A stretch of DNA of 62,520 nucleotides from Moniliella sp. 'wahieum' (GCA_003971905.1 RSEE01000039.1:558001-620520); one strand, 5' to 3'; counted from the first letter of the stretch, positions 12,605 to 57,444 are shown. Translations and numbers: made by a program. The notes: a model not told the origin generated them from the sequence alone.

Positions 12605-15209
12605 GGTGGAAATGGGGAGGAAGTGGTAGCGGGAAGAGGATAGCAACAGCTGTACTAGGGTGGGAGAGGAGAGAGGAGTGGGAGCGGGGAGGTGAGGGGA
12701 GGCAGAGGCCTGGATAAATGCGCGCAATGGACCCGATGTATATATACCGTGCCGGACGATGGGGTCTTTGGGGCGCTCCTCTGCCCATGCGTGGTAGGAT
12801 CCATAGTATCCATATACCCATAGTACCCAACATAGCGTGTGGCTAGGATGACCGCCAACTCCTCTTCATCCTTTGGTCAGAATGGGAGCATGGACAAGCG
12901 CTGCATCTGAATCACGCATCAAGGTTTTGACGCAATGATTAATGACAGCGGGCATAGCGGTCTTAGATCTTAGATCTTAATCGAGGAGCTGTCGTTCTAT
13001 ATTGATGCAGCCACCACAAACCACACTGGACCTATGGACCGTGCCAGGCTCTGGGTTCGGAGGCCAGTGTACGCTCGTGGAAGGCCCCGGACGCACTGCC
13101 CCGATGCACTGTCTGTGTGTCGGACCACGGGTCACTAGCCACTGAGGGCCGCGATGGGTTGGGTTACACCGAAGGCCGATGGGCTCTGGACCACTGATGG
13201 TCAATAACAGCATCTGTGGAGGGGTATATAGCCTAAGCCAAACGACGGCCGCGATAGCCACCTCGATGCGATTTGACAGTCGCAGCTTCAAATGGGATGA
13301 ACGTGGGCGGAGGGCACCACGGAGGGGGACACCCAGCGCATGATGCGGTGGTGCTGATGCATTTTGGTGGATGTCGATGCAACCTCAAGCTTAAAGCTTA
13401 AAGCTTAAGCTTGGGAAGGATAGCGTTAGGCCTGATGCACTGCATATGGGATGATCCTGGCTGTCGGCTACACCGGCCTCGATCTTCTGGAAAACGGAAG
13501 AGCAAAGCGGCGCGGCGACGGCCCCTGGCCTGTTGTGGGACAGCGGCAGCCATTTGATGTGCCTAATCATATTTTGGGGCTACAGCGGCCGCTGTGGTTG
13601 CTGGGTGAACGTGGAACGTTGAATCATGAAGCTTCAGCTTCAAGCGCCAATATAATGTCAAACGTTGAACGTTGCGCTGACGAGGCTTGTCTCTGCCCCT
13701 GTGGCGGTGGTGGTCGGGTGTGGGCTTCTGGTTTGGTCTGCTGTGGGCGGGCGTGGTGCGTGCGTGCGGCGGGCGGCGGAGCGAGTGAGACGCAAGCGTT
13801 TGCTCGGTTACGTGCCTGCGGGTGCCTGCTGGTGCCTGCGGTGTCCGTCGGGTCACTGGTCACCCCGTCACACGTCACACGTCACACGTCGCGTGTCATT
13901 GATGAGCATGCCACATGTCACATGGCACGGGTCCCTATAGGCGCAACAGGCTTGGAAGCTGCACAATCCTTCGCACCGCACGAGCAGCACCATGCGCCCC
14001 AGTGGAACATGAAGCAACCAGCCAGTCTGCATTACGCGTTACGCGGCATCGCAATCACAAAAAAGCTACATCGTGTGGGTGGGTAGTCTGCTGAAGCTCT
14101 GAAGTATGCACCCGATGGGCCCTACCCTTCTATAGCCTCCTGTCCTCTCCTCAGAACCACATCCCCATTCCACTCCTCCTTCAGCAATGTGTACTACGCA
14201 ACGCGTAACAGACGCCAAGTCGAGCTGGTGACATGAACTGTGACTGTCGTAGGTGCTCGACCTCAGGAAATAGTTAAACGTTAAACGTTAAACGACAATT
14301 GCCCAGCCTCGGAGTCCTCAGCCTCAGGGCCTCATCGAACATCGATCATTTTATCTCCCGACTCGGATCTCAGGGTCAGCGCTGCTCAGATTCTGAGATC
14401 TCAGCCTCAGCCGCTGTGCGGCGCCATGCAGGGTTCCTGGGCTCGATCCATACTCAGTCCGATCATCCATCAGTAACTCAGTACTCAGACTGAGTACTGA
14501 GTTTCAGTACGAGTATATATGGCACTGCCTTGATATTCACAAGTCACTGCTTGCATGTGTAACTTGAAGCTTGAAGCTCTCCTTGCCACCACTTCCGGGT
14601 CCACACTCTGATCGAACAGTACTACTATACTACTGCAGTTCAACCTCAGTTTAACGTTGAACGTCGTTGAACTGAGAGGCTTGAGGGTACTGAATCTCAG
14701 TACTGAGTCTCAGTACTGACCCCCCGATGCTCTGCCGCACTCTCGCACACTCTCGCTCCATCCCCTTGCATACCCCTTCTCACCACAGTATAACCGGGAG
14801 AACCCGTAACGAGCGTAATCGATGATCACTAACCCGCTAACCACCCTCAAACTCCGATGAGAGATAATGATCCTGGTGACCCAGCGACGTCCTAATGCAG
14901 TTATGCAATGGCCGAGAGAAGACAGGAGCTGGTTGAACGTTGAACCCAGACTGAGGATCAGAAGAAGAAGGAGAAGAAGGAGAAGAAAGGAGAGCGGCAC
15001 TAGGCCAGGGGATAGGGATACTGGTGTGGTGCCCGGATGAGTAAGATGGTCAGGAGTGCCGCGGAGGTGGCTGGCCCATAGGACCTGGTCAACAAGAGAT
15101 TACCCGTTGTAGTAACCGGTGGTGATTATGATTATCCACAGATTATCGATCGTCCAGATCATCACTCACCCACCGCAACCCGGTCACCTCACACCTGTCA
15201 ACATATGCC

Positions 15210-15260
15210 AACGTTGTCAGCGTTCAACGACGTTCAACGTTCAACGTTCAACGTTCAACT
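15210..15260. repeat. (TCAACGT)n heptamer array
   Basis: cgttcaacgttcaacgttcaacgttcaac; one member of the window-wide T-N-A+N4 family. Confidence 0.9.
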
Positions 15261-55963: not shown

Positions 55964-56383
55964 ACCCGGAAGGCCGTCGCCACCACCTACCACCACCACC
56001 CAACGCAAAAATATTTTTTTTCAGCACACCTCCTGATCTACCTGGCAGACACCATATTCGGTGTCGTTTGGGGGGTAGCCCAACATTTTTCTTTGAACGT
56101 GTTGTATTCGGCCCAGAGGGGTGTCATGTTTTGGTGGCAGGGGGATCGGAAGGGCACCCTCTGGACTGGGGTGTGTGAAATCTGAGGTCAAACGGACCGT
56201 GCACGGCCGAGATACGACGGATGGGGTGGGTCGGGGTGGGTAGGGTTAGGGATGGGTGGGTGTAACTTTTGAACGGGTGGCCCAATCGAAAAACGGAGGC
56301 CATATGCTGCATAGAGCGGACGATTTTATAGCGAGCTATCGCCTCGGCATAACTCCCTCCCCTTCGGGTAGCGAGCTATCTAC

Positions 56384-57444
56384 CCTAGTCAGATATTCAC
56401 GTGAAGGACTGCATAACTCCGTCGATTTTCTCTATGAAAATGACGTTTTTCGTCTCAGAATTGCAGAGGTTGCAAAATGTCAGGCACCACAGTGTGTAAG
56501 TGCGAAAATGTGGCGCCTGACAGATGGTGACCTCTGACAGTTTGGGCGCGGGGCCTGTGTCCTGGAATGCAGAGTTTACGCTGGCCCGTCTGAAACGTGC
56601 GGAGGGCGAAGGGAGGTGCCTGACGGTTGGTGACCTCTGACAGTTTGGGTGCGGGGCCAGTGTCCTGGCGGTGCCAGCTCGAAATGATCGGCATGGGGGC
56701 TACTTACTAATGAGCCCGCATGTGCCGCCCGCTAACACGGCATGTGCCATGTGACATGTGACACACGCTAACGCCGCATGCGGCAACGGATGTGACAGGG
56801 TCCGGGGCGGGGAATGTTCCGTGCGGGGTGGAGCCAGAGTGCAACCGCGGTGGCATGACCGGGATGGGGCATTGCATGTACGTGTGAGGGTGGGTTACAA
56901 TGGGTGTGTGACATGCGACGCCCTGGGGACGCCGCGGTTTGGTGACGATGGTACGCCCGACAGGCGACCGCATCCACGTGCGTTACCGGGGAGCGTTGAA
57001 TGTTGAACGCCGGGGCTGGCCTGGAGCTGCAAAAGCGTGACGCGCAATGCTTGCAGCTGCTGCCAAGATGCCGCGTGCCGGAGCGGGGGGGGCGGCCTCC
57101 TGCGGAGGACGCAGTGGCGCAGGGTGTGCGCTCAGGTACATCGTTGGCAGCGCGCTCCCGCACGTCCCTCAGGCCCAGCGCTCAGTCTGAGCTGCCAGTG
57201 CTTACGCCCAGCGCCCAGGCCTCAGGCCTTCAACGTTCAGGCCTTCGGTCCAGCTCGGTTGGGATTCACTGCAAAAGCGCGGCCCTGCTGTACTGCCGGG
57301 TGGGCCTGGGGTGCAAATGCCAACTGTGTTTCGATGCATGCTGCAGATCAGGACAGTGCACACCAGTGCGCTGAGCTTGCCCTGAGCAAATATAGCCGGC
57401 CCTCCAACGCTGCTTGCGCCGTGTCCAGTCCCGACTCTGGCCTG
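56384..57444 (+). repeat. ~1.05-kb direct repeat, copy 1
   Basis: Starts CCTAGTCAGATATTCACGTGAAGG and ends GTGTCCAGTCCCGACTCT; near-identical to 59392-60431. Confidence 0.95.

Follow-up and report, generated by a model that had tools for sequence, protein, structure and literature searches.

Short heptameric repeats are dispersed over a stretch of nuclear DNA from the fungus Moniliella sp. 'wahieum' (GCA_003971905.1, RSEE01000039.1:558001-620520), analysed here as a single window of 62,520 nucleotides (62.5 kb, approximately 60% G+C). The window carries a ribosomal DNA (rDNA) unit, a tRNA gene, a few genes with recognizable protein domains and, scattered between them, arrays in which T-N-A anchors (N, any base) recur every 7 bp around a self-complementary tetramer. 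A first-pass annotation made from the sequence alone had pointed to these arrays, and all the simple ones that it cited (TTA-GATC, TAA-AGCT, GTAC, CCGG, CGCG and others) were found again in their places. The catalogued arrays are listed below, with positions counted from the first nucleotide of the window and unit numbers given as multiples.

12961-12979, perfect period-7 run of (AGATCT+T) x2.7, reading TTA-GATC-TTA-GATC-TTA
13385-13412, (AAGCTT+A) x3.9, the first anchor TCA and the rest TAA; predicted hairpin, z -4.5
13661-13674, (AACGTT+G) x2
14273-14294, (AACGTT+A) x3.1
14475-14503, 29-nt perfect odd palindrome with an arm of 14, made of two TCA-GTAC units, then flipped as TGA-GTAC; fold z -4.6
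14563-14578, (AAGCTT+G) x2.3
14649-14672, plus strand, array of AACGTT+G that includes an irregular unit and forms the left side of an inverted pair
14687-14719, TCA-GTAC-TGA units (10-bp perfect palindromes) every 13 bp; 23-nt odd palindrome
15222-15259, minus strand, (AACGTT+C) x4.3, right member of the inverted pair, with the same irregular unit as 14649-14672
15453-15504, AGCT/GGCC cluster: AGCT-TCA-GGCC, then TCA-AGCT-TCA-AGCT-TCA-GGCC
15651-15675, (ATGCAT+G) x2-3.6
15841-15889, TCA-GTAC-TCA and AGCT-TCA-AGCT-TTA
16093-16106, (ACCGGT+G) x2, with a further CCGG locus at 16353-16363
17309-17331, AGCT-TCA-GGCC-TCA-AGCT-TCA, with an internal tetramer switch
21216-21287, (AACGTT+A) x2 and TCA-GCGC-TCA
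23606-23622, (ATGCAT+C) x2.4
24094-24197, ACGT-TGA-ACGT-TCA (14-bp perfect palindrome) and three TGA-CGCG loci
38533-38557, TCA-GGCC-TGA, then (AGGCCT+C) x2; 19-nt odd palindrome
41124-41165, degenerate (TCATCGA)n, palindromic spacers 2 of 5
41479-41492, (AGCGCT+G) x2
53468-53596, longest array, some 18 units of (AACGTT+C) at a distance of about 430 bp from the 5S gene; fold z -4.7
53646-53680, (AACGTT+C) x5
54417-54465, (AGGCCT+G) x4 including one in-register CCGG unit, then x2
54499-54516, CATG-TCA-TGCA-TCA-TGCA
54819-54939, TGA-GTAC-TGA-CATG, TGA-CGCG-TGA, (ACGCGT+G) x2, then non-palindromic (GTGACAG) x2.4
56748-56763, (ACATGT+G) x2.3, with an identical copy at 59732-59747 in a 1-kb duplication
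57216-57243, GGCC-TCA-GGCC, an extra T, TCA-ACGT-TCA-GGCC, with an identical copy at 60204-60231

The 7-base repeat is real and very specific. Compared with dinucleotide-preserving shuffles made in 2-kb blocks (n = 200 for the spacer counts), T-N-A recurs at lag 7 in 189 cases against 104.5±11.5 (z 7.3), and the excess persists at lag 14 (154 vs 105, z 5.0) and at lag 21 (137 vs 104.5, z 3.3). The spacer is a palindrome in 81 of the 189 TNA-N4-TNA occurrences, while the shuffles give 6.4±2.6 and never more than 14; since the non-palindromic ones are barely above expectation (108 vs about 98), the whole lag-7 peak belongs to the palindromic class. Enrichment of palindromic spacers, which had been predicted to outlast the removal of tandem arrays, did so: after masking all period-7 runs of at least 12 bp (2,645 bases removed), 20 of the remaining 89 spacers are palindromic against 5.9±2.4 (maximum 12). 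Among perfect tandem runs, period 7 tops all periods from 2 to 15, with 31 runs. When runs were merged within 30 bp and the second copy of the duplication was dropped, 51 independent loci remained, in which 14 of the 16 palindromic tetramers are in use (AATT and TATA are absent). As initially described, the anchors are mostly TCA or TGA: their middle base is C at 23 loci, G at 22, T at 3 and A at 3, that is C or G (T-S-A) in 45 of 51 (p 2e-5 against base composition). The base following the anchor is more often a purine (38 vs 21), a preference not significant against the background (p 0.09).

Because T...A brackets a palindromic tetramer, the unit can be read as a 6-bp palindrome, A-xyy'x'-T, plus one base, and the earlier description of two dyad axes per unit proved correct. 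This palindrome+N design is found in 29 of the 52 primitive perfect period-7 runs of at least 14 bp, where 5.9 are expected (30 of 54 without the primitivity filter); 27 of the 29 belong to the A..T class, the remaining 2 to the C..G class. When four anchors (TNA, ANT, CNG, GNC) are tabulated against palindromic spacers of 2, 4, 6 and 8 bp, the single enriched combination is TNA with a palindrome of 4 bp (81 vs 6.4, z 31); z in the other 15 cells lies between -2.7 and +2.6. For instance, ANT-pal4-ANT occurs 4 times against 6.7 expected, and all ANT-N4-ANT 125 times against 105. For odd-centred palindromes, enrichment is limited to arms of 5 (75 vs 54.7) and of 6 (40 vs 12.8), and isolated 7-bp T-N-A dyads are hardly enriched at all (168 vs 157). 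This specificity for TNA and a 4-bp palindrome points to an enzyme-like step. Two further period-7 arrays of the window lie outside the rule, (GCTTGGT) x9.6 at 18424-18489 and (CGTCACA) x3.6 at 13866-13928, the latter readable as a 5-bp dyad G-TGA-C plus GT.

As an outside control we used metagenome stretches carrying three units of AACGTTC, the commonest array (120 of the 122 listed, two overlapping ones being dropped; 439,719 bases). Of their 1,179 TNA-N4-TNA, 53 (4.5%) have a palindromic spacer different from ACGT, against 59 of 167 (35%) in the window, and only 8 of their 166 non-seed period-7 runs are palindrome+N, 3 of them of the A..T class. It follows from this contrast that a single such repeat is common and the whole family is not, in line with a lineage-specific origin of the family. 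The AACGTTC heptamer itself, in three or more units, was found in at least 122 metagenome contigs, some of which (L003, L007, L026 and L043) carry it in several places, which would make it a possible dispersed repeat of other organisms.

The arrays are predicted to pair with themselves. As single-stranded DNA, five of them fold into predicted hairpins that combine stem segments of 5 bp with T-N-A loops of 3 nt (z -4.7, -4.6, -4.4, -4.5 and -2.4), and by these predicted hairpins the arrays would count among the cruciform or inverted-repeat motifs of non-B DNA. Internal strand flips occur at 14475-14503 (the 29-nt perfect palindrome) and at 53554-53596, and the two inverted AACGTT copies, 549 nt apart, are 96% complementary over 24 nt and have the irregular unit in common; flips and inverted copies together imply that strand switching acts on the arrays. 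The longest array, at 53468-53596, combines such flips with CpG-type decay (ACGT to ACAT or ATAT).

Hairpins, flips and inverted local copies are also what generic hairpin-favoured microsatellite dynamics would produce, in which slipped strands stabilized by self-pairing escape repair and no site-specific step is involved. Ogata and Miura reportedly described in 2000 the in vitro hairpin elongation of palindromic repeats by DNA polymerases. The elongation of hairpin-forming repeats by DNA polymerases in vitro (PMC13061963) lends this explanation further support; the reaction resembles the present case in its self-priming quasi-palindromic tandem repeats and differs from it in being an in vitro one and in lacking a T-S-A or period-7 rule. 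Known structured, hairpin-forming short tandem repeats likewise share with our arrays the tandem units, the length variation by whole units, the self-pairing strands and the short steady-state length (PMC7441554). Here, however, the period is 7, one rule extends over at least 14 different units, T-S-A is strict, and palindromic units of other periods are not enriched. Indeed, palindrome+N units are favoured neither at period 5 (18 of 79, 22.6 expected) nor at period 9 (0 of 8), and self-complementary units stand at chance at periods 4 (29 of 287, 29.2 expected), 6 (4 of 61) and 8 (0 of 6). The A-N-T, C-N-G and G-N-C dyads show no excess despite an equal or better hairpin potential, perfect even-centred palindromes remain at chance level at all arm lengths, and most loci, with 10-14 bp, are too short for growth by slippage. 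Finally, polymerase stalling is described in PMC7441554 as a constraint on the expansion of structured repeats. Taken together, we consider it unlikely that hairpin-favoured slippage by itself produced the family.

The anatomy of the individual loci resembles that of scars. Both TRF and the scans for perfect runs identify the arrays as head-to-tail copies of a short unit, as in ordinary short tandem repeats; an origin by slippage of an arbitrary unit does not fit the shared palindrome+N design or the distribution of lengths. Perfect period-7 runs of at least 11 bp that follow the rule number 64, and their lengths are level over 11-14 bp (14, 11, 12 and 10 runs) before dropping to 3, 4, 1 and so on, with four long arrays of 27-34 bp, whereas the 366 other period-7 runs fall off geometrically, as by chance (215, 86, 40, 12). 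More than half of the rule-fitting runs (37 of 64) are below two full units (<14 bp), and most loci are stretches of 10-14 bp in which T-S-A is duplicated 7 bp apart. Run boundaries coincide preferentially with the tetramer centre (33 of 128 boundaries when pooled, chi-square p 0.0014).

Parsing of the loci into anchors (A) and palindromic tetramers (P) yielded 85 chains, of which 41 end in anchors on both sides, 24 in tetramers on both sides and 20 in one of each. The bare A-P-A form accounts for 35 chains and the bare P-A-P form for 22, with equal tetramers in 8 of the latter and unlike ones in 14, the last figure being near a rough chance estimate. In the 35 bare A-P-A loci the middle bases of the two anchors are identical in 24, complementary in 7 and neither in 4, and when only S-S pairs are counted, identity again prevails over complementarity (23 vs 6, p 0.002). 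Where the middle base is shared (24 loci), the period is continued by the two bases outside the anchor at 23 of 48 ends (chance about 6%) and by a single base at 11 more (chance about 19%). The core event looks like a duplication of T-S-A 7 bp apart, with a palindromic fill that would often, if not always, be related to the flanks.

The tetramers had also been described as interchangeable, switching along an array while the register is kept. This part of the description is weak. Internal chains of the form A-P1-A-P2-A with unlike palindromes occur only three times, at 17313, 53490 and 54420, the rough chance estimate being about 0.5 (170 chain ends × 1/16 × ~0.045). The first, at 17313, allows a second reading, as two copies of a 14-bp unit; 53490 pairs ATAT with ACGT, and ATAT is what ACGT becomes after CpG transitions on both strands, with the intermediate ACAT adjoining; the switch at 54420 goes from GGCC to CCGG. 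In two other chains cited for switching, at 41131 and 54837, most spacers are not palindromes. What makes the arrays a family is the multitude of separate loci, in each of which a tetramer of its own is used.

Simple duplication models were tried on these counts. Duplication of a symmetric 7-bp target was rejected, as 37 of the 64 runs are below 14 bp and non-palindromic TNA-N4-TNA are hardly in excess. Duplication of a 4-bp palindrome with a 3-base footprint is disfavoured by the same-tetramer P-A-P chains, 8 against 35 A-P-A. A 5-bp duplication with two added palindromic bases fits 15 one-sided loci; the two flanks, however, appear to match independently, and the mirror-image product is rare (2 vs 78).

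Several features of the minimal loci recall the footprints of cut-and-paste elements. A 3-bp T-N-A duplication is typical of IS5 and PIF-Harbinger elements, and T...A polarity of the target sites of several groups of DDE transposases. If such a duplication enclosed two bases from each inverted end of an excised element, a 4-bp palindrome would arise naturally, chains would end in anchors, and T-N-A would be directly duplicated, as it is, with an identical middle base, at 24 of the 35 minimal loci. More generally, excision footprints and P-nucleotide joints (Tc1/mariner, hAT, hairpin opening in V(D)J recombination, the IS5/PIF-Harbinger 3-bp duplications) have in common with our loci a short direct duplication around few extra bases, a palindromic filler related to the flanks and the ambiguous middle base of an odd dyad; they differ in that here the size is a constant 3+4, the filler matches either flank independently and the window holds no element. 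Furthermore, 14 tetramers would demand as many element families with distinct terminal dinucleotides, tetramer halves match the host flanks at 23 of 48 ends, which is unexpected of element-derived bases, and neither an element with inverted ends nor a filled site is present in the window, nor a DDE transposase in the 290 of 337 ORFs scanned. As for the anchor, PIF-Harbinger duplications are usually T-W-A, whereas N is here C or G at 45 of 51 loci. The 8-bp duplication of hAT elements has T at position 2 and A at position 7, and loss of one base would give an A-N-T frame of period 7, which is not enriched (ANT-pal4-ANT as above). Tc1/mariner footprints, a TA duplication around three element-derived bases, have period 5, at which palindrome+N units show no excess. 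An origin of the family as plain cut-and-paste footprints is in our opinion highly improbable.

As to location, the claim that the arrays avoid exons and rRNA genes holds: none of the 64 runs lies in the 7,727 bases of rRNA, tRNA and Pfam-supported exons, where 7.9 are expected. Concentrations of runs at 12.9-17.4 kb, 20-25 kb, 27 kb, 53.4-55 kb and 56-60 kb occupy DNA that shows no codon periodicity, and the first and the fourth of them are gene-poor; such a placing would suit neutral sequences. The densest concentration falls within a trough of about 50% G+C (about 14-20 kb) that has no Pfam-supported open reading frame (ORF). Short AT-rich regional centromeres are known in Malassezia, and in size and composition the trough may be said to recall them. 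Family arrays are absent from non-coding regions elsewhere, such as 18-20 kb and the 4.3-kb rDNA spacer at 48.6-52.9 kb.

This distribution bears on the possibility that the arrays are functional, either as a lattice of protein-binding sites or as cruciform-prone DNA marking promoters, replication barriers or a centromere-like region. Such a role would agree with the bias of the anchor to T-S-A, with the density of arrays in the gene-free G+C trough at 14-18 kb and beside the 5S gene, and with the predominance of perfect over decayed spacers. On the other hand, the 14 tetramers have nothing in common except self-complementarity, most loci comprise just two anchors, the number and spacing of arrays per locus are patternless, and none occurs at 18-20 kb or in the spacer between the SSU and 5S genes. 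Arrays of transcription factor sites have fixed half-sites and orientation and a free spacer; here the spacer is self-complementary and anchor pairs are both direct and inverted (24 vs 7). The lattice of a dimeric or polymerizing protein reading TSA-N4-TSA, one of two explanations offered in the first-pass annotation, would need no self-complementary N4 and is left unsupported by the variety of tetramers, the 35 bare A-P-A among 85 chains and the lack of arrays in other non-coding DNA. We regard a functional origin as distinctly unlikely.

The RNA genes of the window are the following.

44113-46437, minus strand, large-subunit (LSU) rRNA gene, in a single rDNA unit also holding a 5.8S gene
46807-48622, minus strand, small-subunit (SSU) rRNA gene
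52916-53034, minus strand, 5S rRNA gene
30178-30264, minus strand, tRNA-Ile (GAT), 87 nt

The LSU match packs model positions 1-3401 into 2,325 bases, approximately 1 kb of a normal eukaryotic LSU being missing, while the SSU is of normal size (1,816 nt). The rDNA unit is single in the window, has ordinary DNA on both sides, and could represent an orphan copy or one with an internal deletion, or else a collapse in the assembly. Its 5S-SSU spacer contains, at 51605-52586, tandem sub-repeats of 181/363 bp with no family arrays inside. The length of the tRNA gene suggests an intron. Pfam support is limited to a C2H2 zinc-finger ORF, a nonribosomal peptide synthetase (NRPS)-like gene, a cytochrome-b5 domain and a DEAD-box (SUB2/UAP56) gene, in a scan that took in 290 of the window's 337 stop-to-stop ORFs with a length of 90 aa or more, the other 47 being 20 in or beside the rRNA genes and 27 from 58870 on. 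The SUB2 exon is 82% identical to that of Jaminaea pallidilutea, 81% to those of Tilletia horrida and Tilletiopsis washingtonensis and 78% to that of Ceraceosorus; no named relative closer than these came up, and a placement in the Ustilaginomycotina, as in the first-pass annotation, is reasonable, with the exobasidiomycete side as the more exact one. An interruption breaks the ORF after 21517, and that of the cytochrome-b5 domain lacks an in-frame ATG upstream, so that neither gives a reliable gene start. At 34384-35236, long tandem repeats of 6/12 bp and 9/18 bp, up to 30 units, lie within long ORFs on both strands and are probably a repetitive coding region. Inverted repeats of about 67 bp (approximately 85% identity) at 14122-14188 and 18001-18066 enclose 3.8 kb holding most of the densest array cluster; they were considered as transposon ends and rejected, as they are not terminal, have ragged ends and delimit no definable element.

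A direct duplication of 1 kb, 56384-57444 and 59392-60431, has its copies about 3 kb apart and 96.4% identical. The heptamer arrays are identical in both; a 22-bp indel adjoins one array, and no 7-bp indels were found in arrays between the two copies. That the arrays agree in copies which otherwise differ argues against an artefact of assembly or sequencing, as do their complex, non-homopolymeric composition, a rule that matches no platform error model and the avoidance of coding and rRNA sequence. Such an origin is scarcely credible.

The explanation that we find slightly more probable than its negation is that the arrays are neutral scars of a lineage-specific process directed to T-S-A, either break and repair or insertion and excision, with palindromic fill, later remodelled by hairpin-driven slippage and strand switching. 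In a first step, a break-and-repair or insertion-excision event at T-S-A would leave T-S-A duplicated exactly 7 bp apart. The gap would be filled by a 4-bp palindrome, often with its halves taken over, in direct or inverted form, from the two bases next to the site, in a fill of the hairpin-opening or strand-switch type. In a second step, suggested by the sequence and the predicted folds, pairs of units would fold into a 5-bp stem with a T-S-A triloop; through this folding the arrays could slip by 7 bp, flip strand internally and be copied inverted nearby, and hairpin formation would keep most of them at two units or fewer. The other explanation offered at the outset, a trace of hairpin/template-switch or insertion-excision events, is a better fit than the lattice as regards the strict period of 7, the strict T-N-A, the duplication of T-S-A and the partly flank-templated tetramers, its mechanism being our inference.

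A number of points weigh against scars of this kind. Matches on the left and right flanks look independent (both sides 4, one side 15, neither 5; n = 24), which is unlike a one-sided hairpin model. Spacers in perfect form are in far greater excess than decayed ones (about 75 vs about 12); this could fit recent activity, and could equally fit selection or self-templated correction. No transposase domain was detected among the 290 of 337 ORFs scanned. A search of the window for TNA-flanked insertions with inverted ends of at least 10 bp returned none, and the two hits with 9-bp arms include one of array against array. We know of no transposon superfamily or repair pathway that yields exactly this scar, none of the simple models tried fits all the counts, and the evidence comes from one 62.5-kb window.

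Full-text literature searches, whose coverage does not extend to subscription journals, returned no prior description of the T-S-A/palindromic-tetramer rule. The telomere motifs of Microstromatales, 52-178 bp in length (PMC13234504), are unrelated to the heptamer family. The motif ATTCACG/ATTCGTG, given in the first-pass annotation as that of parallel intergenic arrays in Ustilago maydis, does fit the TNA-N4 frame; its N4 is non-palindromic, so it does not follow the rule.

A repeat family set by a symmetry rule instead of by its sequence is unusual, and a rule this strict, with a single anchor, spacer length and period, implies that a specific molecular process is at work. The anchor × spacer test by which it was delimited is applicable to any genome. 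More speculatively, and with considerable doubt, the arrays might record an undescribed T-S-A-specific DNA cleavage in this exobasidiomycete lineage, by a domesticated IS5/PIF-like or a structure-specific nuclease, the repair of which would always leave a 7-bp dyad-symmetric scar; such scars would then seed cruciform-capable repeats in gene-free DNA, including the GC-poor and possibly centromere-like trough. Should the arrays have a function as non-B DNA, they would serve as marks of regulatory or centromeric regions in genomes that lack known ones. If instead they derive from breaks with palindromic fill, the scars would let a repair or transposition pathway be read directly from the sequence in a little-studied group of fungi, and could serve to date and map its activity.

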